From NCBI GenBank assembly GCA_005882045.1, contig VBHO01000010.1, positions 680 to 64,679 of the forward strand: DNA of 64,000 bases. The letters are read 5' to 3'. A program made the translations under genes and the position numbers. Below the pieces are notes generated by a model, which was not told where the DNA came from, searched no databases, and saw only the letters and a program-made list of their open reading frames with translations. This DNA comes from Chloroflexota bacterium. GTDB taxonomy: Bacteria > Chloroflexota > Dormibacteria > CF-121. This document shows, piece by piece, positions 2,227 through 20,471 of this stretch (its first letter is position 1; every line of letters begins with the position of its first letter).

Positions 2227-2967
2227 CTAGGACGATTGCGCGGCGCCGGCCGCGCGTTCGCCGGTGCCGGCGACGTCGCGGATGGGGTCGAGCCGGTAGC
2301 CGGCTCCCCGGACGGTCACGATCTCGAACCCCAGCTTGCCGAAGCGGCCAAGCTTCTCCCGCAACCAGCGGATATGGACGTCCACCGTCTTGCGGTCGCC
2401 CAGGTAGTTGTAGCCCCAGACCTGCTCCAGCAGGATCTCGCGGGTAAAGACTCGTCCGGGACGGCGGACCAGGTAGGCGAGCAGTTCCCATTCCTTGGGG
2501 GTCAGCTTCAGCTCGGCGTCGTCGACCATGGCTCGGTGCCCGGCGCGGTCGATCCGCAGCCGGCCGAGCCGGTCCTCCTCGACCTCGGGGCGCACATCCC
2601 GCTGCTCGCTGCGCCGCAGTACGGCCGTCATGCGAGCGAAGAGTTCCCGCAGCGAGAAGGGCTTGGTGATGTAATCGTCGGCACCCAATTGCAGCCCCAC
2701 CACCTTGTCGACTTCACTCTCCTTGGCGGTCAGCATGATGATTGGCACGTTGCTTTCCTGGCGGAGGATGCGGCAGACCTCGAGGCCGTTCAACTCGGGC
2801 AGCATGAGGTCGAGCAGGATCAGGTCGGGCCGCGAGCTCCGGGCGCGCGCGACAGCGTCGGCGCCATCCTGCGCCGCCGTGACCACATAGCCTTCTTTCT
2901 TCAGGTTGAAGGTCAGCGTGTCCCGGATGGTCGCGTCATCCTCGACCACGAGGATGCGCTTCGGCAC
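2227..2967 (-). CDS. phoB: OmpR/PhoB-family response regulator (REC + winged helix). By context the phosphate-regulon regulator.
   Basis: MPKRILVVEDDATIRDTLTFNLKKEGY...LILLDLMLPELNGLEVCRIL...; C-terminal LGYNYLGDRKTVDVHIRWLREKL wHTH. Last gene of the pstSCAB-phoU operon. Confidence 0.85.
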   Translation of the reverse strand: MPKRILVVEDDATIRDTLTFNLKKEGYVVTAAQDGADAVARARSSRPDLILLDLMLPELNGLEVCRILRQESNVPIIMLTAKESEVDKVVGLQLGADDYITKPFSLRELFARMTAVLRRSEQRDVRPEVEEDRLGRLRIDRAGHRAMVDDAELKLTPKEWELLAYLVRRPGRVFTREILLEQVWGYNYLGDRKTVDVHIRWLREKLGRFGKLGFEIVTVRGAGYRLDPIRDVAGTGERAAGAAQSS

Positions 2968-3627
2968 CTAGCTGAGCTCCACGATCCGGCCGGTGTGCAG
3001 GAAGACCACGTCTTCGGCGATGTTGGTGACGCGATCCGCGATTCGCTCCAGGTCCTTGGCGAGGAAGAGCAGGATGGCGGCACGCTGGACATTCGCCGGG
3101 TCGTCGACCATGTAGCGGATCAGCTCCTCCCAGATCTTGTGGTACAGGACGTCGACCTCGTCGTCGCGCTCGGCAATGGCGCGCGCCCGGTCCTCGTCGG
3201 CTTCGATGACGGCGCCCAGGATCTCGTGGACCTGCAACTCCGTGAGCTCGGCCATCTTCGGAAGGTCGACGTAGGGCTTCAACTGGGGCAGGTCGTTGAG
3301 CCGGAGCGCCGCCCGCGCTATGCCGACGGCGTGGTCGCCCATCCGCTCCAGTTCGAGCACCATGTGCTGGAAGCTGACGATCAGGCGGAGGTCGCGGGCC
3401 ACCGGCTGCTGGGTCGCCATGATCATGAAGGCCCGCTCGCGCAGCTGCCGGTGCAGCTCATTGACGTCCTGGTCGCGGGCGATGACCATCTTCGCCAGGG
3501 CGTTGTCGCGATCGACCAGCGCCCGCATCGAGTCGGCGATGGCCTGCTCGACCATGCTGCCCAGGCGGACCACGCCGGACTTCAGCTCGGCGAGCTCCTG
3601 GTCGAAAAGGGTACGGGTGGTGGCCAC
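2968..3627 (-). CDS. phoU: Phosphate signalling complex protein PhoU.
   Basis: Two PhoU repeats (LVDRDNALAKMVIARDQDVNELH ... ERMGDHAVGIA ... DLERIADRVTNIAEDVVFLHTG). Located between pstB and phoB. Confidence 0.9.
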   Translation of the reverse strand: MATTRTLFDQELAELKSGVVRLGSMVEQAIADSMRALVDRDNALAKMVIARDQDVNELHRQLRERAFMIMATQQPVARDLRLIVSFQHMVLELERMGDHAVGIARAALRLNDLPQLKPYVDLPKMAELTELQVHEILGAVIEADEDRARAIAERDDEVDVLYHKIWEELIRYMVDDPANVQRAAILLFLAKDLERIADRVTNIAEDVVFLHTGRIVELS

Positions 3628-3637
3628 GAGGGTCGTT

Positions 3638-4483
3638 CTACCCGAAGCGGCCGGTTATGTAATCCTCGGTCCGGCTGTCTTTCGGGCGATTGAAGATGTC
3701 GTCGGTCGGGCCGAACTCAATCACCTCGCCAGCCCGCTTCTGGTTCATCAGCATGAAGGCGGTGAAGTCCGAGGCACGTGCCGCCTGCTGCATGTTGTGC
3801 GTCACGATCACGATCGTATACCGCTCTTTCAGTTCTTGCATGAGTTCTTCGATGCGCAGCGTGGCAATCGGGTCGAGCGCCGAGGCCGGCTCGTCCATAA
3901 GGACGACTTCGGGCTTGACGGCGAGCGCGCGTGCCAGGCATAACCTTTGCTGCTGGCCGCCGGACAGGTTGAGGGCGGAGCGTCGCAACCGGTCTTTCAC
4001 CTCGTTCCACAGCCCGGTGTCCTTGAGGCTCTCTTCCACCACCTCGTTGATCCGTTGTTTCGACCAACCGAGCATGTGAGGCCCGTAGGCGACGTTGTCG
4101 AAGATCGATTTCGGGAAGGGGTTCGCCCGCTGGAACAACATGCCGACCTGTCGGCGCAGGTTGATGACGTCGGTCTCCGGCGAGAGCACGTTGTGGCCGT
4201 CGATCAGCACCTCGCCGGTGGCGCGCGTGCCGGGGACCAGATCGTACATCCGGTTGAACATGCGCAGAAAGGTCGTCTTTCCACAGCCGGAGGGCCCGAT
4301 CAGGGCGGTGATCTTGCGCGCCTGGACGGAAAGCGACGCGTCGTGTAGCGCCTGGAAGTCGCCGTAGAAAAAGTTCACCTTGCGAGCGTCGAGCTTGATC
4401 TCGATGTTCGGCTCGGGCACCGGCGGCGGGGCGACCTCAGTCTGCATCGTGGTCCAAGCCGTCATTCTCCCATTGACCGCCAT
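3638..4483 (-). CDS. pstB: Phosphate ABC transporter ATP-binding protein PstB.
   Basis: Walker [10 protein letters not shown], signature [15 protein letters not shown], Walker [13 protein letters not shown]; PstB-typical N-terminus. Overlaps the pstA stop by 1 nt (TGATG). Confidence 0.92.
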
Positions 4484-5322
4484 CAGCGCTGGATCCGCCG
4501 GACATAGACCCGGGCCAGGATGTTGGTGGCCGCCACCAGGATCACGAGCAGCAGCGCTGCCGCCCAGGCCTGGTCCTGCAAGTTGGGGTAGGGAACCAGG
4601 GCATTACGGAAAACGGTGAGCGCCAGGGCGCCCATCGGCTGGAGCGGGTTGGTCTGCACGATATCGTTGCCGAAGGCCGTGAAGAGGAGCGGTGCCGTCT
4701 CGCCGGCGGCGCGCGCCATCGCGAGCAGCGCGCCGGTGACGATGCCTCCCAGCGCGGCCGGCACGACGATTTCTAGCGTCACGCGCCAGCGCGGCGCGCC
4801 CAGGGCAAGTCCGGCTTCACGGAGCGCATTGGGCACCAGCAGGAGCGCGGTCTCCGTCGCCCGAAGGATCACCGGCAGCATCAGCACCGCCAGCGCGATC
4901 GATGCCGAGAGTGCCGAGAAATGATGCGTGGTGAGGACCACCACGCTGTAGCCGAAGATGCCGAAGGCAATCGAGGGCAAGCCGGTTAAGACGTCGCTGA
5001 TGAAACGGACCGTGTCCCCCACCTGGTTGCGTCCGTACTCCGAGAGGAAGATGCCGATCAAGACACCGACCGGTACCGCCAACAGCGACCCGATGCCCAC
5101 GATCTCGAGCGTTCCAATGATGGCGTTGAGCACCCCGCCACCCGGCACCCCCTGCGGATGCGGTGACTGGGTGAAGAATCCCGGCGTCAGGATTCCCGGT
5201 AAACCCTTGATGATGACGAAGAGGAAAAGCACGAGGACCGGGATGGCGGCCACCATCACGCAGAGCACGACCAGCGCGCCAACGACTCGGTCGAGAAGGA
5301 TGCGTACGAAGGGGAGGCTCAT
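4483..5322 (-). CDS. pstA: Phosphate ABC transporter permease PstA.
   Basis: Polytopic ABC permease with EAA-like loop ([30 protein letters not shown]). ATGA overlap with pstC. Confidence 0.88.
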
Positions 5323-6305
5323 GCTGAGGCCCGAGCCGATCCAGAAAACCGCCAGATCAAAAGGCGCGCCAGGACGTTGACGACGATCGTGATCAGCACC
5401 AGCACCACCCCCAGATAGAAGAGGGAACCGAGGTAGACATTCCCGGTGGCTTCGGTGAATTCGTTGGCGATCACACTCGGCAGCGTGTATCCCGAGGCGA
5501 ACAGCGAGGCGCTGATCTGCATCGTGTTGCCGATCACCATGGTGACCGCGATCGTCTCACCAAGCGCGCGCCCCAGCGACAGCAGGACCGCACCGGTGAT
5601 CCCCACTCGGGCGTAGGGGAGGATCACCGACCAGATGGTCTCGGCGTTGGTCGCGCCGAGCGCCAGGCTGGCCTCGCGGAGCTCGCGAGGGACGGCGCGA
5701 ATCACGTCGCGGGAGAGCGCGATCATGATCGGGAGGACCATGATGGCCAGCACCAGGCCGGCGGTGAGGAAGCCATAGCCGGTAGGCGTGCCCTTGAACA
5801 GCGCAAGGAAGCCCACGGTGTGCTGAAGGAATGGATCGACCTTGTCGCGCATCAAGGGAGTCAGGATGAAAAACGCCCAGAGGCCGATGACGACGCTGGG
5901 AATACCGGCGAGCAACTCGATCAAAAAGGACAGCGGGCCGCGGACCAAGCTCAGGCGAGCGTCCTCCGCGAGGAAAAGCGCGGCGCCCAGTCCGATCGGA
6001 AAGGCGATCAGCAGGGCGATCGCGGAGGTTACCAGTGTGCCGTAGATCGCAGTCAGCGCACCGAACTGATTTCTCACCGGATCCCAGGTGCGGCTGGTAA
6101 AGAAGCCGAGTCCGAACTTTGTGATCGCGGGGAGCGCGGGAATAAACAACGCGATGATGAAGATGACCGCGATCAGCATGATCAGGGCGGCCGCGCCGTA
6201 CGCGATCACGCTGAAGACGCGGTCGCCTGAAACGAGCGGCCGCTGGTGGCTCGCGGCCACCAGCGGCGTGGGAACCATCCGCTCGGCGGCAGTTCCTCGA
6301 CTCAT
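5319..6305 (-). CDS. pstC: Phosphate ABC transporter permease PstC.
   Basis: Polytopic permease with EAA loop (LREASLALGATNAETIWSVILPYARVGITGAV). Lies between pstS and pstA. Confidence 0.88.
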   Translation of the reverse strand: MSRGTAAERMVPTPLVAASHQRPLVSGDRVFSVIAYGAAALIMLIAVIFIIALFIPALPAITKFGLGFFTSRTWDPVRNQFGALTAIYGTLVTSAIALLIAFPIGLGAALFLAEDARLSLVRGPLSFLIELLAGIPSVVIGLWAFFILTPLMRDKVDPFLQHTVGFLALFKGTPTGYGFLTAGLVLAIMVLPIMIALSRDVIRAVPRELREASLALGATNAETIWSVILPYARVGITGAVLLSLGRALGETIAVTMVIGNTMQISASLFASGYTLPSVIANEFTEATGNVYLGSLFYLGVVLVLITIVVNVLARLLIWRFSGSARASA

Positions 6306-6312
6306 TGCGACG

Positions 6313-7425
6313 TTAGGACGGGGCGGGCACGCTGAGGAGGGTGCTGCCTCCCGAGGTAACGGTCTTCAGTGAATTGATGTCGTCGCGCACGATGTTGGAC
6401 GGAAGCCTCGCATAGTGGACATTGGCCGCGTACTGCTGGCCGTCGGTGACCAGCCAGTCGAGGAAGTCGACCAGCGCGGTGCCTTTGGTCTTGTCGGGTT
6501 GGTCCGTATAGAGCATCAGCCAGCTGTAGCCGCTGATCGGGGCGCTGTTCTTGCCGGGGGCGTCGACGATCGAGAATTGCGACGGGTTGACGGCCAGGAA
6601 CTGGCTGGCGGCCGCGGTCGCGCCCTCGGGGCTCGGGATCACGAAGTTGCCATCATGGTTCTGCAGCGAGGCCTGGGTCATGTTGGTCTGGAGGACGTAG
6701 GCGAGCTCGACGTAGCCGATCGCCCCGGGCGTCTGCTTGATGGTGGTGGCGACGGCCTCGTTACCCTTGGCGCCCTGGCCGACGGGCCAGGAGACCGACT
6801 TGCCCTTGCCGACCTTGGTCTTCCAGTCAGCGCTCACCGTCGAGAGGTAGTCGGTGAAGATGTAGGTTGTCCCGCTGCCATCCGAGCGGTGCACCACGGT
6901 GATTGACTGGTTGGGCAGGCTGACGCCGCTGTTGTCAGCGGCCAGTGCCGGATCGTTCCAATTCTTGATGGTCCCGAGGAAGATACCGGCGATCGTCTTG
7001 GGCGTGAGCCTGAGCTGGCCGTTCGAGACGCCGGCCAGGTTGTAGGCCATCGATTCCGTGCCCAACGTGGACGCGATCTGGACGACCTTGTCGCTCCCAC
7101 CCGCGGAGGCAAGCTCCGAGGCATTCATCGGCACGTCGCTCGCGCCGAAGTCGACAGTCTTCTTGATCAGCTGCTGGATGCCGGCTCCTGAGCCGATCGA
7201 CTGGTAGTTGATGGTGACCTGGCTGAACTTCTGGTTGTAGGCGAAGCGGGCGGCGTCGTAGAACGGGGCCGGGAAGGTGGCGCCGGCGCCGGTCAGGGAG
7301 GCGGCGGGCGGTGTCGGCACGCCAGGACCGCCGGTGGACGGATTGGTGACGCCGGTGTTGCCACCGCAGGCAGCAAGCAGCAGCACGCTGCTAGCCGCGG
7401 CAACAAATCGAGCGCCGCTCATCAT
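6313..7425 (-). CDS. pstS: Phosphate-binding lipoprotein PstS.
   Basis: Lipoprotein signal MMSGARFVAAASSVLLLAACGG. PBP-like domain (SIGSGAGIQQL, VVHRSDGSGTTYIFTDYL). First gene of the pst operon. Confidence 0.9.
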   Translation of the reverse strand: MMSGARFVAAASSVLLLAACGGNTGVTNPSTGGPGVPTPPAASLTGAGATFPAPFYDAARFAYNQKFSQVTINYQSIGSGAGIQQLIKKTVDFGASDVPMNASELASAGGSDKVVQIASTLGTESMAYNLAGVSNGQLRLTPKTIAGIFLGTIKNWNDPALAADNSGVSLPNQSITVVHRSDGSGTTYIFTDYLSTVSADWKTKVGKGKSVSWPVGQGAKGNEAVATTIKQTPGAIGYVELAYVLQTNMTQASLQNHDGNFVIPSPEGATAAASQFLAVNPSQFSIVDAPGKNSAPISGYSWLMLYTDQPDKTKGTALVDFLDWLVTDGQQYAANVHYARLPSNIVRDDINSLKTVTSGGSTLLSVPAPS

Positions 7426-7517
7426 GTTGGTGTCTCCTCCTTCACAAGCAGGTCACACGACCCTTTGGGCTCATCAACAGGCTAGCCCGCCCTCTTTATG
7501 GGGCGGGGCGCAGATGG

Positions 7518-8615
7518 TTAAGCCGGCGTTAACGACGCGGCCGGCAGGCGGAGCCGAATGACGGTCCCCGCTCCTGGCGTGCTGTCGGCGTCGATGGTGC
7601 CTCCTTGCAACTCGACCAGATGCCGGGCGATCGAAAGGCCGAGGCCGCTTCCCGGAAGGCCACCTCTTGAGCGGTCAACCTTGTAGAACCGCTCGAAGAT
7701 CCGGGAGAGATCACGGGAAGGAATCCCTGGGCCGGTGTCCCGTACAGCGAACTCGACCCGGTCATGGTCGGCGCTGGCAGTGATGACCACCTCCCCTGCG
7801 GGAGTGAACTTGAGGGCATTATCGAGAATGTTCTGTAGTGCCTGGTCGGTCTTCGCCCGGTCGCCGAGCGCCGTGCTGCCCGTGGTCGCAATCTCGGCTC
7901 GTAGGATCAGCTGGCCGGCCGCGGCCCTGGCCTGGTATCGGTCGATAAGAGCGCGGACCAGTTCATCCACCGAGAAGGGCAGGTGTTCCACCGCGATACC
8001 CTCCGCATCGAGCGCAGCCAGCTGATTCAGATTGAACACGATGTTGGCGAGGCGCTCTGCCTCCTGGGTGATGCGGTCGATAAACAGCCGGCTGTCTCCA
8101 TCCGCGGGAAGCTGAGCCGATAGGGTCTGCGCCGCGAGGTCCAGACCAGCCAGCGGCGTTCGAATCTCATGGGAAAGGTTGGCCACGAATTGCTGCCGAA
8201 CCGTTTCGAGGTGGCGCAGCCGGGTTATGTCTCGCACCAGGAGAGCGACCTCGGCATCGGCAAGGGGCACGGCGCGGACCTGCAAGATGCGGCCTGATAC
8301 TGGCAGTTCGACCTCGGCCGCCTGTTCAAGCCGCGACTCACGGGCTCGGAGCGCCAACCCATCGATGCGATGGTCTCGAGCGACGTCGACCAGCGGACGG
8401 CCCACCGGCTGCTCAAGGGCTGGAAACATCAGCCGCGCCGCCGGATTGAGCCAGCGGACCTGATCCCCCTTCAGGAGCAGGACGCCCTCTTCCACGTGAT
8501 CGATGATCCCGGCTAGCATGGGGCGCGACTGGGCAGCATTGCTCGGCTCGGCGGGAGCCGGGATCGAGGTCCCGCTCAAGCCATTTGGCGGTCGCCGTCG
8601 CCAGAATCGCGCCAT
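7518..8615 (-). CDS. PhoR-like sensor histidine kinase (PAS + HisKA + HATPase), apparently cytoplasmic with no TM segments visible.
   Basis: H-box NLSHEIRTPLAGL. N/G1/G2 boxes (LDNALKFTPAG, RDTGPGI, GSGLGLSIARHLVELQGG). Immediately upstream of pstS on the same strand. Start may be the internal M (MLAGIIDH...). Confidence 0.8.
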   Translation of the reverse strand: MARFWRRRPPNGLSGTSIPAPAEPSNAAQSRPMLAGIIDHVEEGVLLLKGDQVRWLNPAARLMFPALEQPVGRPLVDVARDHRIDGLALRARESRLEQAAEVELPVSGRILQVRAVPLADAEVALLVRDITRLRHLETVRQQFVANLSHEIRTPLAGLDLAAQTLSAQLPADGDSRLFIDRITQEAERLANIVFNLNQLAALDAEGIAVEHLPFSVDELVRALIDRYQARAAAGQLILRAEIATTGSTALGDRAKTDQALQNILDNALKFTPAGEVVITASADHDRVEFAVRDTGPGIPSRDLSRIFERFYKVDRSRGGLPGSGLGLSIARHLVELQGGTIDADSTPGAGTVIRLRLPAASLTPA

Positions 8616-8828
8616 CCTCGCCGAATCTAGCAGACGATCGAACCGCCCCAGTGAATGAAAGCCGCTCCAAAAGGGGGAGTGCCTCGGAGCGGCGATGGGA
8701 ACGTGTCAGCGGTGTCCGTAGCATGCACCTCGAAGGCAAAGCGTTGGCCGCCGGACGGTTAACAATCGGACGCCGCTCGCCTTCCTTTAAGGTTGTGTGG
8801 GGACGTCCACTGCAGCGGAGGTGCGGTC

Positions 8829-9437
8829 ATGAGGTTGAGCCTGGTACCCCAGGAGCGGCGGTTCTACGCCCTGTTCAAGAAGCAGGGAGAGTTGGTCAGC
8901 GAGTCTCTGGAGCAGCTACGCAATGGTTTGCTGGAGGGCCAGACGAGGCACCCGCGCCTCCGCGAACTCGAACACGAGTGCGACGACGTGACGCACGAGA
9001 TCTACAACTTGATCAACCAGACCTTCGTCACACCCTTCGAGCGTGAAGATATCTACTCGCTGGCGTCATCGCTGGACGAGGTCGTTGACCTGGCCGAGGA
9101 GGTCTCAGACAAGATTGACCTCTACCGGGTGAAGGAAATCAGCCAGTCCGCTCGCCGCATGGGGGAACTGCTGGCCAAGGCGGGCAAGGAAGTTCAGGAG
9201 GCCGTCGCCAACCTCGAGGGGTTCAAGAACCTGGCTCCCCGCCGGCTCGCGATTCACAGCCTGGAGAACCAGGGGGACCGGGTCACCCGCGAAGCGCTGG
9301 CCGAACTCTTCACGGACGGCGCCAGCCCCAGTGACCTCGTCAAGTGGAAAGATCTTTATGACTTGCTCGAGACGACCATGGACCAGTGCGAACACGTGGC
9401 CAACGTCCTGGAAGCGACCTCGATCAAGAATGCCTGA
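8829..9437 (+). CDS. DUF47 (PhoU-like, TIGR00153) Pit-accessory protein.
   Basis: MRLSLVPQERRFYALFKKQGELV...HECDDVTHEIYNLINQTFVTPFEREDIYSLASSLDEVVD. SD GGAGGT 7 nt upstream of the ATG. Stop overlaps the pit start by 8 nt. Confidence 0.8.
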   Translation: MRLSLVPQERRFYALFKKQGELVSESLEQLRNGLLEGQTRHPRLRELEHECDDVTHEIYNLINQTFVTPFEREDIYSLASSLDEVVDLAEEVSDKIDLYRVKEISQSARRMGELLAKAGKEVQEAVANLEGFKNLAPRRLAIHSLENQGDRVTREALAELFTDGASPSDLVKWKDLYDLLETTMDQCEHVANVLEATSIKNA

Positions 9438-10437
9438 CGTCCTATTGCTGATTACGATCCTGATCGCCGTTGGTTTCGACTTCACGAACGGCTTTCACGA
9501 TACCGCCAATGCCATCGCCACGTCGGTGTCGACCCGCGCCGTGTCACCCAGGATGGCGGTCCTGATTTCGGCGGTCCTCAACCTGGCCGGCGCGGTGATC
9601 ACCGTGGTCTTCTTCCAGGCCAAGGTGTCGAATACCATCGGCAAGATCGTCGCCTTCAAGGCGGGTCTCGTGGTGATCATTGCGGCCCTGATTGGAGCAA
9701 TCGCCTGGAACCTCATCACCTGGTACCTCGGACTGCCGAGCAGCTCGACCCACGCGTTGGTTGGGGCCCTGAGCGGGGCTGCCATCGCAGCCGCGCACGG
9801 GGTCGGTGGAGTCCGAGCGTCAGAGTTCTGGAAGACCGTACTCTCGCTCGTCATCTCGCCACCCGCAGGCTTTATCCTGGCCGCGGTCGTCATGACGCTG
9901 TTGCTCGTAGTCCTGCACGGCGCCCGGCCTGCGCCGTTGAACCGCACCTTTCGCAACCTTCAGATTCTCACGGCCGCGCTGGTCTCCTACTCTCACGGGG
10001 CCAACGACGCGCAGAAAACGATGGCGGTGATCACCCTCGCGCTGGTGGCCACGGGTCGTCTTCAGAAGTTTCAGGTGCCGGTTTGGGTCGTTCTCCTATC
10101 CGCGTCGGCGATCGCCTTTGGTACCTACGCGGGTGGATGGCGGATCATCAAAACCCTTGGCTGGCGCATCTACAAGCTGGACCCGCCGACCGGCTTCGCG
10201 GCGCAGTTGACCGGAGCCGCCGTGATCCAGTTCGCAACCCAATTTGGCCTTCCCGTATCGACCACGCACGTCGTGACGGGGTCCGTCATGGGGGCCGGCG
10301 CCTCGCAACGGCTTTCTGCCTTGCGATGGGGCGTAGGAGCCAATATCGTGCTAGCCTGGGTGCTGACAATCCCGGCGGCGGGCCTGATGGCCTGGGTGCT
10401 CTACGCGATCCTCAACACGGCCGGACTGCGCGGATAG
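9430..10437 (+). CDS. pit: Inorganic phosphate transporter, PiT family.
   Basis: MPDVLLLITILIAVGFDFTNGFHDTANAIATSVSTRA contains the hallmark GxxDxxN motif twice (also GANDAQKTM). About 10 TM segments. Confidence 0.88.
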   Translation: MPDVLLLITILIAVGFDFTNGFHDTANAIATSVSTRAVSPRMAVLISAVLNLAGAVITVVFFQAKVSNTIGKIVAFKAGLVVIIAALIGAIAWNLITWYLGLPSSSTHALVGALSGAAIAAAHGVGGVRASEFWKTVLSLVISPPAGFILAAVVMTLLLVVLHGARPAPLNRTFRNLQILTAALVSYSHGANDAQKTMAVITLALVATGRLQKFQVPVWVVLLSASAIAFGTYAGGWRIIKTLGWRIYKLDPPTGFAAQLTGAAVIQFATQFGLPVSTTHVVTGSVMGAGASQRLSALRWGVGANIVLAWVLTIPAAGLMAWVLYAILNTAGLRG

Positions 10438-10446
10438 TCGCTCGAA

Positions 10447-10905
10447 TCAGGGCGCGGCCACATAGCGGGCGCCCGTGATTTTTCCACCGGTCTCCTCGAC
10501 CACCCATGTAGATCCCTTCTCCATGTCGGCCCGCCCCCTTGGTACCAACTCTTGTTCCACGAGCTGCTCGAGGAACTCTTCGACGAGGTCGCCGTGGGTG
10601 CATAGAACGATGTTGCGTCCCTCGAACTGCGCTACCAGGCGGATGAGACTCTCGCCACCGGAGCCTTCTTCCAGGTCCTTCCTTGGCTCGATCGGGAGCT
10701 TGCGTTCTTCGGCCAGCGGCTCGAGGGTCTGCACGCAGCGAACGTAGGGGCTGGAGAGGATCGCGTCGAGCGGTTCTTTCTTGAGCCAGGCCGCGAGCGC
10801 CTCCGCCTGACGGCGGCCGGTCTTGGTCAGTGGCCGCAGCCGATCATCGCCCTCCCACTCGCCACGATCGCCCGCCTTTGCGTGGCGGACAATGTAGATC
10901 GCCAT
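10447..10905 (-). CDS. Histidine phosphatase superfamily protein (SixA/phosphoglycerate-mutase-like).
   Basis: N-terminal catalytic RHAKAGDR (RHG-type motif, MAIYIVRHAKA). Histidine at ...LCTHGDLV. 152 aa, SixA size. Confidence 0.7.
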   Translation of the reverse strand: MAIYIVRHAKAGDRGEWEGDDRLRPLTKTGRRQAEALAAWLKKEPLDAILSSPYVRCVQTLEPLAEERKLPIEPRKDLEEGSGGESLIRLVAQFEGRNIVLCTHGDLVEEFLEQLVEQELVPRGRADMEKGSTWVVEETGGKITGARYVAAP

Positions 10906-10935
10906 CAGGTAATGACGGCCTCGAGCGGAGCCGTG

Positions 10936-11439
10936 CTATCCGGTGGCTTCGAGGTCGAGCGCCCGCAGGAGAGCACGATCCCGGCGATAGCTGAGCAGGT
11001 CGAGCGCATCGTCGATCGTCACCCAGCGGACCTCGTCGATCTCGCTGCCTGCGCGGAACCGGCCGCTGACGACGTCCATCAGCCAGTAGCAGGCGACTTT
11101 GTCACGACCCTTGTGGTCGGTGTACGCCGTGCAGCCGAGCGGCGCCACGAGTTTGCAGCGAAGACCCGTCTCCTCCTCGACCTCGCGCAGCGCGGTTTCC
11201 TCTAACGTTTCCCCACGGTCAACCTTTCCCTTGGGAAAGGACCAGTCGTCGTAGCCCGGGCGGTGGACGACGGCGACGCGCAGTGCGCCGCGGGACCCAT
11301 TTCGACGGACGACGCCTCCCGCGGCCCTCACCAGCTTTGCCTCATCGACGTTCAGGATCTTTGCTGCCATGGACACCCCTTGCGGTATTAGTTGCTGTGA
11401 CGATGGCTGGGTCGAGGCGGCTCGGCTCATATCATCCAC
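10936..11439 (-). CDS. NUDIX hydrolase.
   Basis: Nudix box GKVDRGETLEETALREVEEETGL. Start is either 11439 (13 nt overlap with upstream gene) or the ATG at 11370 (MAAKILNV). Confidence 0.8.
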   Translation of the reverse strand: MDDMSRAASTQPSSQQLIPQGVSMAAKILNVDEAKLVRAAGGVVRRNGSRGALRVAVVHRPGYDDWSFPKGKVDRGETLEETALREVEEETGLRCKLVAPLGCTAYTDHKGRDKVACYWLMDVVSGRFRAGSEIDEVRWVTIDDALDLLSYRRDRALLRALDLEATG

Positions 11440-12905
11440 CTTCTGAGCCGTTTACGGTCAAGTTTTTTCCACACTTTAGGCCATTCCGCCCGATCACGGG
11501 CCGCAACTTCGCGCTCGAGGGCGCACAATTCGCCGGCGACGAAGGCTCGTGATCCACTGCCGGCCCCTCGCAACCACACTTGAGCGGTCGCGCTGTCCTG
11601 ATGATCACCGAGGATGTCCTGGAGGGCCGCGGCGGCCTCGGAAAAGCGCGGCACGGTCTTTCCGGCGATGGGCGCCGCGGCTTCGGCGGCATAACGCGCG
11701 CGCTTGGCGAGGATGCGGATTCGGTGCAGGTCGGCGTCGGCGGCCGGTTCGGGCACGCGCTGTACGCCCTGGCGCAAGCGTTTCCAGTCTCGCCGGGCAA
11801 GCGCAGGCAGGGTGGTCGAGGCCGGTTGATCGGCGTGCGCGGTCAACGCCGGGGCGCGAGAGGCCTCGACCAGCCGCTCGATCAGGTCGATGTATCGGTC
11901 GCTGCGCATATCGAGCACGAGCCGGGCGCGGGCTTCCTCACTCTCCGCTTGCAGTTCATCGGCAAGCTCACCCACGATCGGGGCATCATCGGCGGCCAGT
12001 GCCGTCGTCCGGTCGCGCAACCGCTGGCTCATCACTTGCTTGTCGCGAACGCTGCCCAGGCGGGCACCGAGCCAGCGCAAGTCGGCGAGCCACGCGTTGG
12101 CCCACACGGGATCGAGCAGCGGGCGGAAGGTCCGCAATTGCGAGCGCAGGCGGCGGGTCGCGACCCTGGCCCGGTGGACATCTTCCGGATCGTCGCCCAA
12201 CCGCACGCCGGGGTCGTGACGCAGCAGGCTCGCCACCGACACCGCGATCACGTGCCGGACCAGGTCGCCGGCGCGCGCGGTCGGCGCCAGCAGGATGGGC
12301 TCGACCTCGGGCGCGGCCGTCGCCCGCGCCCCGAGCGCGCGCACGAGCTTCGATGCCTGGTCCTCGTCGGACGCGCCGGCGTGACGCAAGCGCGCGAGGA
12401 TGGGATCCAGTAGGCGATCCGCCGACGGATCGCGCAACTCGACCTCGACCTCGCGGAAACGGTTCTGGATGCGAAGTCCCTGGATGACGGAAACGTCGTC
12501 ATCGACGACCTCGGCCAGCACGGCCCCATCCTTGTTCTTGAGTTGCACCCGCCGGCGCACGGTAGAGAGGCTGGCCACCGGCACGAGCGTGGAGCGGCGC
12601 ACGTACGCGATCACGAGCGCGAGCGCCGCATCCGGTGGCCGGTTGCCATCGCCTGGAAACTCGAGCTCCCGCCGGTTCAGCGTCGGGCCTTCGCTCATGG
12701 TCGGGAGCTTGAGGGTCCAACCTTCACCCTGGCGCAGGCGCAGGTTGCAGCCCCAGCGCGCCAGGCGTAAGTCCGGTGTGTCGTAGTAGACGGTCTCCAG
12801 GCGGCGCTCGTCCACGGGCGACGTATCGACCGCCGCCGCTACGTCCTCGAGATTCGGTAGATGGAAACTGGGCGTGACCGCGAGCTTGATCTCGCGCTCA
12901 AGCAT
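11427..12905 (-). CDS. CYTH (triphosphate tunnel metalloenzyme)-CHAD two-domain protein.
   Basis: N-terminal MLEREIKLAV (CYTH ExExK motif) plus downstream beta-strands with conserved acidic/basic residues. C-terminal helical region with CHAD-like features (HRARVATRRLRSQLRTF...RDKQV...LHRIRILAKRARYAAE). The internal ATG at 12905 was chosen because it is tightly coupled to the ppk1 stop at 12898. Confidence 0.7.
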   Translation of the reverse strand: MLEREIKLAVTPSFHLPNLEDVAAAVDTSPVDERRLETVYYDTPDLRLARWGCNLRLRQGEGWTLKLPTMSEGPTLNRRELEFPGDGNRPPDAALALVIAYVRRSTLVPVASLSTVRRRVQLKNKDGAVLAEVVDDDVSVIQGLRIQNRFREVEVELRDPSADRLLDPILARLRHAGASDEDQASKLVRALGARATAAPEVEPILLAPTARAGDLVRHVIAVSVASLLRHDPGVRLGDDPEDVHRARVATRRLRSQLRTFRPLLDPVWANAWLADLRWLGARLGSVRDKQVMSQRLRDRTTALAADDAPIVGELADELQAESEEARARLVLDMRSDRYIDLIERLVEASRAPALTAHADQPASTTLPALARRDWKRLRQGVQRVPEPAADADLHRIRILAKRARYAAEAAAPIAGKTVPRFSEAAAALQDILGDHQDSATAQVWLRGAGSGSRAFVAGELCALEREVAARDRAEWPKVWKKLDRKRLRRWMI

Positions 12906-15120
12906 CCGGCGTGTGCCCGTTCGTCCCGTTCGTTGCCGCCGCGCGTGCCGCGGCCAATTGCTCGAAGGCCTGCTGCGCATTGACGCCCTTGACCGTCGGG
13001 ATCTTCGACCAGGACCCGTTCGACTGCAGGCCCCAAGCGAGTACGTCGTCATCGAGCTCGACATCGAGGATCTGCGCCAGCCGATCCTGCAACGTGCCAT
13101 CGAGGACGGGAACCATTGCCTCGACACGGCGATCGAGGTTCCGCGGCATCAGGTCCGACGAACCGAGATAGTATTCGGCCGCATCGCCGTCTGGACCGAA
13201 TCGAAAGATTCGTGAATGCTCGAGGAAGCGGCCGATCAACGAGCGCACGCGGATTCGGCCGGAAAGGCCAGGCACGCCAGGCCGCAAGGAGCAGAGACCG
13301 CGGACGATCAGGTCGACTTCGGTCCCGGCCTGGGATGCGGCGTAGAGCGCCTCGACGATTTCGGGGTCGACCAGGCTGTTGACCTTGAGGATGATGCGAC
13401 CGCCGCCCGGACGGGCGGCTTCGCGCCGGATCATGCGGATGATGTTGGAGCGCAAGCCCACCGGCGCGACCAGGAGCCGGCCGAATCGACGCTGGCGGCT
13501 GTAGCCGGTGAGGAAGTTGAAGAGCTCGGAGACGTCCGAGCCCAGCTCGGGGTCCGCCGAGAGCAAGCCGACGTCTTCATAGATCTGTGCGGTCTTGGGA
13601 TTGTAGTTGCCGGTGCCGACGTGGACATAGCGTCGGATGCCATCTGTTTCTCGTCGAACAACCAGCGCGACTTTTGCGTGCGTCTTGAGGCCGACGACGC
13701 CATAGACGACGTGGACGCCGACCTGCTCCAGCTCCTGGGCCCACGCGATATTCGCTTGCTCGTCACCGCGCGCCTTCAGTTCGACGAGCGCCACCACCTG
13801 CTTGCCGCTCTCGGCCGCGCGGATCAGCGCCCGGACGATAGGACTCACCGGGCCAGAGGTGCGATAGAGCGTCTGCTTGATGGCAAGGACGTCGGGATCG
13901 TTGGCCGCCTGGTCGATGAAGGCTTCCGCCGAGGTGGTGAAGGAGTCATAGGGGTGATGGACGAGGATGTCCCCGTCCTTGAGGGCCTCGAAGATATCGG
14001 CCTGCTCGACCCCGACGCCCTGCAGCCGCCGCTGGGTGACGGGAGTCCATGGCTCGCCCTTGAGATCGGGACGGTCGAGCGCGTAGATCGCCCAGAGGCT
14101 GCTCAGGTCGAGGAGGCCGTCGACGCGGTAGACGTCCGTGGGTTCGAGCTCGAGCTCACGGACGAGCAGGCCCAACACTTCGTCGGACATTCCGGCATCG
14201 ACTTCGAGTCGGACGACCTGCGCCTTGCGCTGCTGCCGGCGCAACTCGTTCTGGATGGCGGCCAGCAGGTCCGCCGCTTCCTCGTCGACCAGGTCGAGGT
14301 CGGCGTCGCGTGTCACCCGGAAGGGGTGCTGGCTGACGATCTCCATACCGGGAAACAGCTCGCCCACGTAGAGCGCAATCACCTGCTCGAGCGGAATGAA
14401 CCGCTTCCCGTCCGGCAAAGCGATGAAGCGAGGCAGCAACGGCGGCACCTTGACACGGGCGAAGCGCATCTGGTGACGGACCGGGTCGCGCACCATCACC
14501 GCGAGGTTGAGCGAGAGGTGAGAAATGTACGGAAAGGGATGCGCCGGATCCACCGCGAGCGGCGTGAGCACGGGGAAAATCCGGGCACGAAACTCGGCGA
14601 GGAGGAAGTCGTGAGCCGTCTCATCGAGGTCGGCGACCGAGGCGATCGAGACCCCTTGCTGCTCGAGGGCCGGTGCGATATGGCGCGTGAAAAGATCGGT
14701 ACTTCGCTGGAGGAGGGCCCCGGACCGCTGGTGAATGGCTCGCAGCTGCTCGCCGGTGGTCATGCCGTCGGGCGAGGTCTGCGGGAGGGCGGCGTGAACC
14801 TGCTCCTTCAGGCCGGCGACCCGGACCTGGAAGAACTGGTCGACGTTCTCGCCCAGGATCGCCAGAAACCGCACCCGCTCGAGCAGCGGCAGCGACTCGT
14901 CCTCGGCCATGGCCAGCACGCGATCGTCGAAGTCGAGCTGGGAAAGCTCCCGGTTCAGGTAGCGCGGCTGCGATTGGACCGGGGCCGGCTGCGCGGGAGG
15001 GGCTTCAATGGTTGCACCCTGGACGGTCGGTGCTGAAGCTACCGGCATTTGGTCCCAGAGTGACACGGAAGCGGGCTGGGCAGCCGCGGACGCTTCGAAC
15101 TTAGGCGTGCCTTCCCCCAT
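12898..15120 (-). CDS. ppk: Polyphosphate kinase 1.
   Basis: PPK1 N-terminus RYLNRELSQLDFDDRVLAMAED...ERVRFLAILGENVDQFF. PLD-like HxK motifs (HAKVALVVRRE). About 700-aa length. Start may be the internal M at 15048. Confidence 0.9.
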   Translation of the reverse strand: MGEGTPKFEASAAAQPASVSLWDQMPVASAPTVQGATIEAPPAQPAPVQSQPRYLNRELSQLDFDDRVLAMAEDESLPLLERVRFLAILGENVDQFFQVRVAGLKEQVHAALPQTSPDGMTTGEQLRAIHQRSGALLQRSTDLFTRHIAPALEQQGVSIASVADLDETAHDFLLAEFRARIFPVLTPLAVDPAHPFPYISHLSLNLAVMVRDPVRHQMRFARVKVPPLLPRFIALPDGKRFIPLEQVIALYVGELFPGMEIVSQHPFRVTRDADLDLVDEEAADLLAAIQNELRRQQRKAQVVRLEVDAGMSDEVLGLLVRELELEPTDVYRVDGLLDLSSLWAIYALDRPDLKGEPWTPVTQRRLQGVGVEQADIFEALKDGDILVHHPYDSFTTSAEAFIDQAANDPDVLAIKQTLYRTSGPVSPIVRALIRAAESGKQVVALVELKARGDEQANIAWAQELEQVGVHVVYGVVGLKTHAKVALVVRRETDGIRRYVHVGTGNYNPKTAQIYEDVGLLSADPELGSDVSELFNFLTGYSRQRRFGRLLVAPVGLRSNIIRMIRREAARPGGGRIILKVNSLVDPEIVEALYAASQAGTEVDLIVRGLCSLRPGVPGLSGRIRVRSLIGRFLEHSRIFRFGPDGDAAEYYLGSSDLMPRNLDRRVEAMVPVLDGTLQDRLAQILDVELDDDVLAWGLQSNGSWSKIPTVKGVNAQQAFEQLAAARAAATNGTNGHTPDA

Positions 15121-15162
15121 CGGTCAAGTATAGGAAGGCCAGATTAAGGGACGGGTTGCGGC

Positions 15163-16362
15163 TCAGCCGCCCTTATCTGGGGCCCTCGCATATTCGTCTG
15201 GCAGGTCCACGCCGAACTTGTCATGAAGGGCGTAGACGTCGTGAAAGTCCGCGTCACCTGGATCGTAACCGGCGTGGTTGGCGACTTGATATTCGGCGGT
15301 CATGCACCGCACGGATTCGCCGTCGATCGTCCCGGTGCCGGTAAAGGCAACGGCCGGAAAGGCCAGCCCAGTGCCGTCGTCTGGCTGCGGCCCATACAGT
15401 CCATCGCCCGCCCCATCAAAGACCACACCGTGCAGATCAACCTCCCGGCCCCGCCCATCAGCCATGACGAAGTTGAAGGGTCGTGCCGCCTCCTCGACCC
15501 GACGAAATCCGGCCGCACCAAGCACATCGGCGAGACGGTCTATCTCGCTCTGGCGGAGCACGAGGTCGATGTCATCGTGTGGTCGACTCTGTTTGCCGAG
15601 AAGCGCATCGACACCCCACCCACCATCGACCCACACATCGAGCCCTTGGCTCTTCAGGAGCCGGAGGATCTCCGCCGCATCCGCCTCCGTCATTTCGGCC
15701 GTTGAGCCTCGTATTGGCCGGAGTCCCCTGAGCACGTACGGGAGTCTCTCGAGCGACGTGATCACGGGAACGTCCATCGCTTCCGCTTTCCGGGCGTGCA
15801 CTTCACCCCAGGGCCCGCGTCCGAGCAAGATGCCGTAAACTCCGGCCGCTCTCGATGGAATCACATCGGTATCGAGCCGGTCTCCCACGTACGCAATTTG
15901 CTCCGGCGGAACGCCCGCCGTTTCGATCAGGCGTTGAAAGAATGCTGTCGAGGGCTTGCTGGCTCCCCAACGGTCCGGCGCCCCCAGAACATCGACCGGA
16001 AGGTCGGCATCCAGCATGGCCTGCTCGATGACGTCTGAAGGAAAGTTGCCGGCGACGCCCACGAGGCGGCCCCTTGCCTTCACATTAGCCAGGCATGGTC
16101 GAGCATCGGCGTAGACATCACTTGCTCGAAGGCGGTGGGGCCGTCCGGCTCGTATCCGCGCAATCTGCTCGGCCTCAAGGTCAAATCCGGGTCGCAGAAG
16201 TTCGAAGGCCTCACGATGATCTCGTCCCTGCGCAATAACCTCGCGCAGGGTCGTAAACAGCCGTTCCTCGTCCACACCAAGCCAGTCGGCCCATTCGCGC
16301 CACAACCGCGTCTCATCGAAGAGGGTATAGCCGACGTCGAAAAATACCGCGCGGATGATCAT
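15163..16362 (-). CDS. Fusion protein: N-terminal HAD-superfamily hydrolase domain + C-terminal ANT(2'')/Lnu-like nucleotidyltransferase domain.
   Basis: HAD motif I-like FFDVGYTLFD and motif IV YVGDRLDTDV. C-terminal AAEILRLLKSQGLDVWVDGGWGVDALLG...HDDIDLVL resembles the aminoglycoside-2''-adenylyltransferase / lincosamide NTase family. Confidence 0.6.
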   Translation of the reverse strand: MIIRAVFFDVGYTLFDETRLWREWADWLGVDEERLFTTLREVIAQGRDHREAFELLRPGFDLEAEQIARIRAGRPHRLRASDVYADARPCLANVKARGRLVGVAGNFPSDVIEQAMLDADLPVDVLGAPDRWGASKPSTAFFQRLIETAGVPPEQIAYVGDRLDTDVIPSRAAGVYGILLGRGPWGEVHARKAEAMDVPVITSLERLPYVLRGLRPIRGSTAEMTEADAAEILRLLKSQGLDVWVDGGWGVDALLGKQSRPHDDIDLVLRQSEIDRLADVLGAAGFRRVEEAARPFNFVMADGRGREVDLHGVVFDGAGDGLYGPQPDDGTGLAFPAVAFTGTGTIDGESVRCMTAEYQVANHAGYDPGDADFHDVYALHDKFGVDLPDEYARAPDKGG

Positions 16363-16379
16363 TGGTCCGAGGTGTCAGA

Positions 16380-16455
16380 TGGAGCGGGAGACGAGACTCG
16401 AACTCGCGACTCCGACCTTGGGAAGGTCGTACTCTACCAACTGAGTTACTCCCGC
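16380..16455 (-). tRNA. tRNA-Gly (anticodon CCC), encodes 3' CCA.
   Basis: Folded by hand on the minus strand: acceptor GCGGGAG/CTCCCGC, D-arm ACTC-AGTTGGTA-GAGT, anticodon stem CGACC/GGTCG with loop TTCCCAA (U33, CCC, A37), T-arm GCGAG-TTCGAGT-CTCGT, discriminator U, CCA. Confidence 0.9.
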
Positions 16456-16964
16456 TCGGCTAGCCGGATTTTAGCATCGCTCCTTCGCAGGTCCTGGCAC
16501 ATCGGCCAGATGACCCCGATCAACTCGGCCATGCGCGCCGCCGTCACTTTCACCCGGGCCGCATCGAAGACCTCGACCGGGTGGGTTTCGTACAGCCGAA
16601 TCCAGCCACGATCCCAGGGCTCGAGGTCGATCCGCTCGCCGAGGCGCGCCTTGATCATCAGCAACTGCCGTGCCAGCCCGGCGGCGATCCGCTCGTTTAA
16701 GGCCGGCGCCGCCTCCAGGTGAAGGCCCAGCTCGAGCCGGCCCGTGTTGCGATGCCACCAGGCCTCGAAATGCAGGCGCGGGTCGTCGTAGAACCACTGC
16801 GCCTGGCTGGAGCGGACCCGGTGGCTGACCTCCTTCAACCGCGCAGGGAGGGCGGCCTTCACGGGTGCCGGCAATGCCCGGAAGAATCCGGCCGTGCGCA
16901 CGAATCGACGCTCGTTGCGAGCGCGCGCACCCGGTCGGGCGGGAACGATGGGCCGGATCGGCAC
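16446..16964 (-). CDS. Hypothetical protein (no recognisable domain).
   Basis: 172-aa ORF with coding-like GC3. Its stop overlaps the tRNA 5' end by about 10 nt. Function unknown. Confidence 0.4.
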   Translation of the reverse strand: MPIRPIVPARPGARARNERRFVRTAGFFRALPAPVKAALPARLKEVSHRVRSSQAQWFYDDPRLHFEAWWHRNTGRLELGLHLEAAPALNERIAAGLARQLLMIKARLGERIDLEPWDRGWIRLYETHPVEVFDAARVKVTAARMAELIGVIWPMCQDLRRSDAKIRLAERE

Positions 16965-16978
16965 GCGGGCGTGCCGAC

Positions 16979-19474: not shown

Positions 19475-20471
19475 GCGGGCTGCGCCTCCCGCTTCTGGAC
19501 ACGCTCGCGTAGGAACGCGGCGGAATCCTCGGGCTTGACGACGTTGATCCACATTCCGGTCCCCAGCTCGAAGCCCGCGGCGGTGCTGAGCTTGGGAATC
19601 AGCTCGAGGTGCCAGTGGTACGCATCGCCGACGTCAGCCTTGAGCGGCGCACTGTGGATGAAGTAGTTGAAGGGCGGATCGTTCAGGCCTTCGCGCAAGG
19701 CTTTCAGCGTGAGTTGCAGCGCCTCCGCAAACGCCGGTTTCTCTCGGCTGAGATCGAGGTCGCCGAAGGATGCCGTATCCTCGCCGCATAAGGCGCAAAG
19801 ACGACGAAAGCATCGTTCTCGAACACGATGCGGGCGCCGGCGGCGAGCTCGTCGTCCAGCGTCCGGCAGAAGACGCAGGCATGCTGCTCCTGATGGAAGC
19901 GCCGCCCACCCTGCAGCTCCTCGGTGAAACTCGGTGAAACCAGGCTGATGGCATAGAGCTGGGAATGCGGATGCTCCAGCGAGGCCCCGGCTGGGCGGCC
20001 GTGGTTATACAGGATCAGCACGTGCTCGAGTTGCGGATCATTGGCGTGGTGGCGATAGCGGTCGACGTAGGACTGGACGATCTCCTCCACCTGCCGCCGG
20101 GGCAACAACGGCGTCGGCGCCACGTGGTCGGGGCTGCTGATCAACACCTCGCAGGCGCCGATGGCATCGCGCTGCCAGAAGCGACCCTCCCGCTGTTCCT
20201 GCCCATCCGGCTCGAGCCGAAACGCCGCATACAGGTTCGGCACCACCCGCACCCACCAGCCCTGGCCATTGGGCGTCCCGCCCGGCGCGCGGTAGGCGAG
20301 CACCTCCGGCGGCGTCATCGCCTCATGCCCGGGGCAGAAGGGGCACACATCGCGGGCCGCGACCGCCTCCTTGACTGCCTGGGTGAACGAATCGGGCCGC
20401 CTCGCGCGCTCGGTGGCGACGGCCACCCAGCGCCCCGTGATCAGATCCTGACGAAGCTGGGGCAGGGGCAA
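19471..20471 (-). pseudogene. galT: Galactose-1-phosphate uridylyltransferase (GalT, HIT superfamily) interrupted by a frameshift near 19770-19790.
   Basis: Upstream ORF (20471-19704) carries the Zn motif CPFCPGHE and ends in out-of-frame residues. Downstream ORF (19698-19471) carries the HIT motif [11 protein letters not shown]. Hand translation shows the two frames join at ...AARIRHP / FGDLDLSRE, needing 1 nt. Either a genuine pseudogene or a sequencing indel. Confidence 0.7.

Follow-up and report, generated by a model that had tools for sequence, protein, structure and literature searches.

The 64,000-nucleotide (nt) stretch of the Chloroflexota contig VBHO01000010.1 analysed here (hereafter, the window) carries, at 15120..10447 on the minus strand, four consecutive genes that encode polyphosphate kinase 1 (PPK1), a CYTH-CHAD protein, a NUDIX hydrolase and a branch-1 histidine phosphatase. 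An earlier note, made from the sequence letters without database searches, had described this stack of genes, and both the order and the coordinates it gave proved right. Its assignments of the PPK1, CYTH, CHAD, NUDIX and His_Phos_1 domains were likewise supported by a Pfam profile search, in which every domain assignment in the four genes passed the curated cut-off. PPK1 contains the domains PF13089 (PP_kinase_N), PF02503 (PP_kinase), PF17941 (PP_kinase_C_1) and PF13090 (PP_kinase_C), with E-values from 1e-34 to 7e-72, and scores 788 bits against TIGR03705 (cut-off 466). The CYTH-CHAD protein scores 52 bits with PF01928 (cut-off 23.2) and 185 bits with PF05235 (cut-off 25.6), the NUDIX protein 86 bits with PF00293 (cut-off 21.1), and the histidine phosphatase 81 bits with PF00300 (cut-off 21.7). 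The first ~45 residues of PPK1 are poorly conserved; the protein retains the KTHAK (H481) and EHSR (H635) motifs, and, as judged from these motifs, the two histidines are putative equivalents of the catalytic H435 and H592 of Escherichia coli PPK1. In E. coli, the H435A/H592A mutant of PPK1 is impaired in catalysis (PMC6537752).

The junctions between the genes, in the order ppk1, CYTH-CHAD, NUDIX and histidine phosphatase, are -8, +56 and +30 nt, the last being the distance from the NUDIX stop to the histidine phosphatase ATG. Because the CYTH-CHAD ATG (12905-12903) lies upstream of the ppk1 TGA (12900-12898), these two genes overlap by 8 nt (junction sequence ATGCTTGA), and the placement of the CYTH-CHAD start 7 nt after the ppk1 stop in the earlier note was wrong. 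Longer versions of the CYTH-CHAD protein, namely the open reading frame (ORF) of 566 amino acids (aa) that starts at GTG 13127 and the 541-aa NCBI model, were rejected because the ExExK motif must be N-terminal; the relatives start at M-x-E-R-E. The deposited NCBI model (P0001; window 11427-13127, minus strand) exceeds the homologue-supported length by 49 aa, and its start seems to reach too far into ppk1. The NUDIX gene has three candidate starts, GTG 11439, ATG 11430 and ATG 11370, of which only the last is preceded by a Shine-Dalgarno sequence, GCAAGGGGTGTCC, which is invariant in 14 close relatives; ATG 11370 is itself conserved and is also the start picked by gene callers on identical contigs. 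With this start, the NUDIX protein consists of 144 aa and is separated from the CYTH-CHAD stop by a 56-nt gap; the two upstream starts are less likely.

The conservation of this arrangement was assessed by scanning one genome per species with an alignment of 8 CYTH-CHAD sequences and locating the partner genes by tblastn in 80 loci, where the CYTH-CHAD proteins are 46-92% identical to that in the window; as the best CYTH-CHAD matches, these loci represent the orthologous group rather than CYTH-CHAD genes in general. In 69 of the 80 loci, ppk1 is directly upstream of CYTH-CHAD, the histidine phosphatase gene is found downstream in 64 (68 when four loci that have it within 1 kb, with NUDIX not in its usual place, are added), and NUDIX is located between the two in 45. 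All four genes are present in this order in 33 loci, whereas another 26 (L018-L041 and others, mostly labelled Dormibacterota or Chloroflexi) contain ppk1, CYTH-CHAD and the histidine phosphatase gene back to back without NUDIX, 4 contain CYTH-CHAD, NUDIX and the histidine phosphatase gene without ppk1, and the rest are truncated contigs or lack one partner. The ppk1 to CYTH-CHAD junction has a median of -1 nt, with an overlap in 36 of the 69 loci. The loci are labelled Dormibacterota, Eremiobacterota and basal Actinomycetota (Acidimicrobiia, Thermoleophilia, Gaiellales, Solirubrobacterales), with the caveat that a few labels of metagenome-assembled genomes (MAGs) look unreliable. The flanking genes vary among the 80 loci while the cluster stays, and the arrangement is conserved far beyond chance. 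A CYTH-CHAD protein identical to that in the window is encoded by contigs from soil metagenomes and by an NCBI MAG that bears the label 'Chloroflexi bacterium'; the label of the close relatives is Candidatus Dormibacterota.

The CYTH-CHAD protein belongs to a large family, with 17,209 clusters at 50% identity reaching E<=0.001. When a profile of 29 diverse CYTH-CHAD homologues was aligned to E. coli YgiF, residues E3, E5, K7, R56, R58, E154 and E156 of the window protein aligned with YgiF residues E4, E6, K8, R56, R58, E160 and E162, and the residues of the ExExK motif, the tunnel arginines and the second ExE were at least 90% conserved among the 29 homologues. In YgiF, metal 2 is held by E4, E6 and E162 and metal 1 by E160, and mutation of E6, E160 or R56 impairs catalysis (PMC4641920). 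The CHAD domain contains two repeated basic motifs, HxxRVxxRRxR and HxxRIxxKRxRY, and H244, R247, R251 and R254 of the first as well as H394, R397, K401, R404 and Y405 of the second are invariant in the same homologues. In the AlphaFold2 model of the protein (pLDDT 94.5, pTM 0.90), residues 2-157 are nearly all in beta strands. The top Foldseek match of this model is YgiF (5a60), over the full length; the complex of CtCHAD with polyphosphate (polyP) (6qva, TM 0.82) and the Streptomyces protein PptA (6rn5, TM 0.77) were matched as well, and the CYTH part matched thiamine triphosphatases, SaTTM and other TTM enzymes. Experiments have shown that CHAD is a polyP-binding module, with affinities in the nanomolar to micromolar range; CHAD proteins have been located on polyP granules, about half of them carry a TTM domain, stand-alone CHAD genes often belong to polyP operons, and the CHAD domain enhances the activity of YgiF (PMC6537752). 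YgiF-like CYTH/TTM-CHAD proteins are short-chain polyphosphatases (PMC6537752, PMC4641920), so the polyphosphate link drawn in the earlier note is well founded.

As judged by sequence, the two domains of MutT1 are here carried by separate genes, as the NUDIX protein and the histidine phosphatase, which are distant free-standing relatives of these domains. In the MutT1 model NF052459 (292 positions), positions 1-124 are matched by the NUDIX protein and 134-289 by the histidine phosphatase, with 120 and 92 bits, respectively, which fall far short of the equivalog cut-off of 475 bits. The best solved relatives of the NUDIX protein, which contains the complete Nudix box GKVDRGETLEETALREVEEETGL at residues 48-70, are MutT1 of Mycobacterium tuberculosis (9cxx, 1e-27) and M. 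smegmatis (5gg5, 1e-24), and the next ones are Ap6A and Ap4A hydrolases. The histidine phosphatase has the catalytic core R7-H8 (as RHA), R56 and H104; among the 68 orthologues, R7, H8 and R56 do not vary, 67 have H104, and RHA replaces RHG in 57. The best solved relatives of this protein, which the earlier note had called 'SixA-like', are again MutT1, through its C-terminal domain (5gg5, 7e-22; 9cxx, 3e-18); SixA follows with a much weaker match (1ujb, 2e-6), and the cut-off of the SixA equivalog TIGR00249 is not reached (47.9 bits, cut-off 74.5). The two genes form one reading frame in 3 loci and are separate in 37, and therefore behave as one unit; the gap between them has a median of 9 nt and does not exceed 31 nt in any of the 37 split loci. 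The substrates of MutT1 are 8-oxo-(d)GTP and diadenosine polyphosphates (PMC11784022, PMC12407098). In addition, its Nudix domain dephosphorylates the phosphohistidine of NDK (PMC11784022), and its C-terminal domain dephosphorylates, via the histidine of the RHG motif, several sensor kinases including the phosphate sensor SenX3, in a manner modulated by guanine nucleotides (PMC12407098). The M. tuberculosis locus tags are Rv2984 for ppk1 and Rv2985 for mutT1; judging from these consecutive tags, which come from separate papers, the two genes appear to be adjacent, and the ppk1-MutT1 neighbourhood would therefore be old.

Table 1. Features of the ppk1 cluster and its surroundings (window coordinates, except for the fused reading frames, which are given in the coordinates of their own loci)
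Feature	Coordinates	Strand	Basis or remark
ppk1, polyphosphate kinase 1, 740 aa	15120..12898	-	Pfam + TIGR03705
CYTH(TTM)-CHAD protein, 492 aa	12905..11427	-	PF01928 + PF05235
CYTH tunnel domain, residues 1-186	12905..12348	-	
CHAD domain, about residues 205-488	12293..11442	-	
NUDIX hydrolase, 144 aa, equivalent of the MutT1 N-terminal domain	11370..10936	-	PF00293, NF052459
Branch-1 histidine phosphatase, 152 aa, equivalent of the SixA-like MutT1 C-terminal domain	10905..10447	-	PF00300, NF052459
Conserved ppk1 upstream block, putative promoter	15118..15150	-	alignment of 9 close relatives
Fused NUDIX-histidine phosphatase ORFs	L056 8491-9399; L075 8545-9339; L078 8560-9354		labels: one Eremiobacterota, two Actinomycetota
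PhoU_div (DUF47) gene and Pit/PHO4 phosphate transporter	8793..10437	+	Pfam; convergent context, outside the operon
PhoR-like histidine kinase, pstS, pstC, pstA, pstB, phoU, OmpR/PhoB-type response regulator	2227..8615	-	Pfam, gene table of identical contig L001; context
OmpR/PhoB-type response regulator	2227-2967		
Neighbouring PhoR-like histidine kinase	7518-8615		
HAD phosphatase and lincosamide/aminoglycoside-type (Lnu-like) nucleotidyltransferase fusion, 399 aa	15163-16362	-	between tRNA-Gly and ppk1
tRNA-Gly(CCC)	16380-16455	-	

The cluster lies next to genes for phosphate uptake and sensing (Table 1). The PhoR-like kinase and the PhoB-like regulator neighbour the cluster here and in many relatives, and the PhoU_div/Pit pair is also found downstream of it in the closest relatives. 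No PPX, GppA or PPK2 was found among the window ORFs tested outside the cluster. A direct repeat, TTAAC-N6-TTAAC, precedes pstS (at 7516-7533); it is conserved in all 9 aligned relatives and, in the relative L022, is extended to three units in an 11-nt phase (4830-4856), the layout expected for a putative binding site of a PhoB/PhoP-type regulator. With one mismatch allowed, the same repeat precedes ppk1, always at the same position, in 16 of 63 relatives (in L010 and L014-L050), all labelled Dormibacterota or close, and is not found in control stretches inside ppk1 (0 matches). We consider this repeat a candidate Pho box for Dormibacterota. The signal comes from the comparative alignment only; an exact search for GTTAAC-N6-TTAAC in the window alone gave no informative signal.

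In the window, the block upstream of ppk1 contains a single CTTAAT unit (15148-15143) followed by CTATACT (15133-15127). The alignment of 9 close relatives shows that the CTATACT element is invariant and ends 6 nt before the ppk1 ATG, and that the block is kept though the upstream genes differ. This element resembles a -10 element, which suggests a near-leaderless ppk1 transcript. By analogy with the homologous Streptomyces operon, and given the overlaps and short gaps between the genes, all four probably share a promoter that lies immediately before ppk1, with coupled translation. When the CYTH-CHAD/NUDIX spacer (11371-11426) was compared between the window and 13 close relatives, 12 of these 14 sequences had a length of 56 nt, and all 14 were open in the NUDIX reading frame. 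An RNA element in this conserved spacer was dropped from consideration because the predicted fold is unstable (z = +1.15); as in Streptomyces, the spacer may hold an internal promoter. A scan of 8500-17500 for consensus promoters and terminators yielded no site above chance, including inside the cluster.

The earlier note had called the four genes a candidate system. However, a ppk-pptA-nudix operon, in which pptA encodes a CHAD-only protein and nudix a 142-aa protein (SLI_4382), has already been demonstrated in Streptomyces lividans: the genes are co-transcribed, as determined by quantitative reverse transcription PCR, and are activated by PhoR/PhoP under phosphate limitation; the operon adjoins pstSCAB, and pptA overlaps the end of ppk (PMC8003754). 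This published operon, the MutT1 split and the Pho-regulon setting had all been missed. Loss of pptA in S. lividans leads to phosphate stress, and PptA has been proposed to help a phosphatase, not known so far, to degrade polyP (PMC8003754). According to the same study, the arrangement is conserved in Streptomyces and not elsewhere, and genes for NUDIX, MutT and histidine phosphatase proteins are common downstream of ppk in other bacteria (PMC8003754). The window shares with the operon of S. lividans and S. coelicolor the order of ppk, a CHAD gene and a small Nudix gene on one strand, the overlap of the CHAD gene start with the ppk stop, the adjacent pst genes, the CHAD fold of PptA and nearest characterised Nudix relatives of the Ap(n)A-hydrolase type. 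It differs in that its CHAD protein begins with a CYTH/TTM domain whose catalytic residues are intact, whereas PptA consists of CHAD only, and in that a fourth gene, for a SixA-like histidine phosphatase, follows Nudix. Furthermore, the Streptomyces host belongs to another phylum; co-transcription and Pho control are proven there, and we infer them here.

The second system that resembles the cluster is found in mycobacteria, where a Nudix domain and a SixA-like histidine phosphatase domain, which are the best sequence matches of both window proteins, appear to be encoded beside ppk1. Both MutT1 and the window pair have an intact Nudix box and an intact R-H-R-H core. The mycobacterial MutT1, however, is a single polypeptide with an RHG motif, whereas in the window there are two genes 30 nt apart (split also in 37 of 40 relatives), the motif is RHA, and the CYTH-CHAD gene intervenes between ppk1 and the MutT1 halves. 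The CYTH-CHAD protein itself is comparable to E. coli YgiF, an inorganic triphosphatase (5a60/5a61) with the same two-domain organization and matching catalytic glutamates and arginine, but it was rejected as an orthologue of YgiF: the two sequences are only about 17-23% identical, the window protein has a long CHAD domain, like that of CtCHAD, whereas YgiF has a short form, and E. coli ygiF adjoins glnE, not ppk. YgiF was found by the profile search only, with an E-value of 5e-6; phmmer gave no match at E<0.01. With the stand-alone CHAD 'phosins' (Ralstonia PptA and PptB, Chlorobium CtCHAD, 6qv7/6qva), the window protein shares two four-helix bundles and both basic motifs, but the phosins have no enzymatic domain. 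Thus, the cluster is a variant of operons known from Streptomyces and mycobacteria and not a new kind of system. What is new is the apparently catalytic CYTH domain on the CHAD protein of the operon, the two-gene MutT1, the spread outside Streptomyces and the candidate Pho box.

We consider it reasonably likely that the cluster is a Pho-linked operon for polyphosphate turnover in an uncultured soil bacterium. PPK1 would make polyP from ATP, or ATP from polyP and ADP, and the CYTH-CHAD protein would dock on the polymer or granule through its CHAD domain. Judging from the conserved catalytic residues and the fold, the two-metal TTM tunnel would hydrolyse tripolyphosphate and short polyP, releasing inorganic phosphate, as in E. 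coli YgiF. The Nudix half of the split MutT1 would cut nucleoside and dinucleoside polyphosphates (8-oxo-GTP, Ap4A/Ap6A-type), and the SixA-like half would take off the following phosphate (NDP to NMP), dephosphorylate phosphohistidine proteins such as the PhoR-type kinase, or do both.

Several observations weigh against this reading. The CYTH family spans triphosphatases, thiamine triphosphatases and adenylate cyclases, substrate specificity of CYTH domains is not readable from sequence, and the identity to YgiF is low, as indicated above. Deletions of ygiF or of Ralstonia CHAD genes have no clear phenotype (PMC6537752, PMC8003754), and neither does deletion of the nudix gene in Streptomyces have a visible one (PMC8003754). 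In Streptomyces, pptA and the nudix gene are additionally served by promoters of their own, so that partly independent transcription could occur in this cluster too. With regard to regulation, Pho genes are present within 7 kb in only 27 of the 80 loci, and the site upstream of ppk1 in the window has decayed to the single CTTAAT unit, so that Pho control in this genome rests on the relatives and the context; on these grounds, we regard it as plausible.

Among the alternatives, the one that survives best is a signalling feedback, in which the SixA-like phosphatase would reset the phosphohistidine of the PhoR-type kinase or of autophosphorylated PPK1 and so couple Pho signalling to the amount of stored polyP instead of merely breaking polyP down, with the Nudix half sensing or modulating through nucleotides and the CYTH-CHAD protein reporting the state of the store. 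Precedents are provided by MutT1, in which the C-terminal domain acts on sensor kinases, SenX3 among them, under modulation by guanine nucleotides (PMC12407098), and the N-terminal domain acts on NDK phosphohistidine (PMC11784022). Moreover, the histidine phosphatase is kept more often than NUDIX (64 vs 45 of the 80 loci, with 26 having ppk1, CYTH-CHAD and the histidine phosphatase only), its R-H-R-H core is invariant or nearly so, and genes for a PhoR-like kinase and a PhoB-like regulator are adjacent here and in many relatives. However, the histidine phosphatase falls under the SixA equivalog cut-off and has RHA in place of RHG in 57 of the 68 orthologues, the mycobacterial domain also has a small-molecule role (8-oxo-GDP to 8-oxo-GMP), and only the 27 loci mentioned above have Pho genes nearby. 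Taken together, we deem such a feedback unlikely. An even more speculative and rather improbable extension is that ppk1, CYTH-CHAD and the SixA-like phosphatase are the conserved core, and that a polyP-bound complex gates polyP synthesis or feeds the state of the store into Pho signalling, with the phosphatase acting on the phosphohistidine of PPK1 or of the neighbouring PhoR-type kinase. If true, this would be an undescribed regulatory link between polyP stores and phosphate sensing.

Returning to the turnover operon, it could also be asked whether the MutT1 halves take part in it at all, or are sanitisers of the nucleotide pool (8-oxo-GTP/8-oxo-dGTP) that stand beside ppk1 by inherited order, leaving only ppk1 and CYTH-CHAD as a functional pair. 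This would agree with the characterised activity of MutT1, hydrolysis of 8-oxo-(d)GTP (PMC11784022), with the lack of a visible phenotype of the Streptomyces nudix deletion (PMC8003754), and with the absence of NUDIX from the 26 loci that keep the other cluster genes. It is nevertheless doubtful, given that the linkage to ppk1 persists across genomes labelled as three phyla while the surroundings change, that the NUDIX to histidine phosphatase gaps are tiny or overlapping (all 37 at most 31 nt, as noted above), that the Streptomyces genes are co-transcribed and Pho-regulated (PMC8003754), and that the mutT1 tag of M. tuberculosis (Rv2985) adjoins that of ppk1 (Rv2984). Finally, the earlier note had proposed a module associated with polyP granules in which polyP is capped or processed, or nucleoside polyphosphates from PPK1 are, which we regard as very improbable: although CHAD proteins are found on polyP granules and triphosphate ends are the targets of TTM enzymes (PMC6537752), and although, MutT1 aside, the characterised proteins closest to the Nudix half are Ap4A and Ap6A hydrolases, nothing points to capping, a transferase fold able to add a cap is absent from the cluster enzymes, TTM domains with such an acidic patch are hydrolases or cyclases (PMC4641920), and, in Agrobacterium tumefaciens, PPK1 made no adenosine tetraphosphate whereas PPK2 made nucleoside oligophosphates (PMC7595981), which weakens the case for Nudix clearing by-products of PPK1.

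The cluster is useful for understanding polyphosphate turnover in several respects. At the position of PptA in the operon, an apparently active TTM phosphohydrolase is joined to CHAD, in effect a natural 'Rosetta stone' fusion; it supports the idea that PptA is an accessory factor for a phosphatase, and names a candidate class for the partner enzyme. The ppk-CHAD-Nudix(-histidine phosphatase) arrangement is widespread beyond Streptomyces, in genomes labelled Dormibacterota, Acidimicrobiia, Thermoleophilia and Eremiobacterota. The two-gene relatives of MutT1 in the ppk1 context could help separate the nucleotide-cleaning from the phosphohistidine phosphatase roles of this protein, and the TTAAC repeat provides a testable Pho-box candidate for a phylum without cultured genetics.

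Between the tRNA-Gly gene and ppk1, the window contains the fusion of a HAD phosphatase with a nucleotidyltransferase (Table 1), which was rejected as a member of the module because all 80 related loci lack it. A tRNA-like sequence is present close upstream of ppk1 in L008 and L010, and the HAD-nucleotidyltransferase gene therefore looks like a local insertion beside a tRNA gene. An Rfam scan of 10300-16600 detected the tRNA-Gly only. ARAGORN additionally reported a 102-nt 'tRNA-Asp' at 12280-12381 on the plus strand, opposite to the CYTH-CHAD gene and inside it; this is most likely a false positive because Rfam has no tRNA match there. Farther upstream of the cluster, there are two large fusion genes on the minus strand, one encoding an 857-aa protein that combines a sugar-nucleotidyl transferase with hexapeptide repeats and a phosphoglucomutase/phosphomannomutase (16979-19552), and the other a 1234-aa protein that combines a GH57 glycoside hydrolase with a GT5 starch/glycogen synthase (27954-31658). 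Together with a second GH57 gene (32868-34073), these resemble an alpha-glucan storage cluster.

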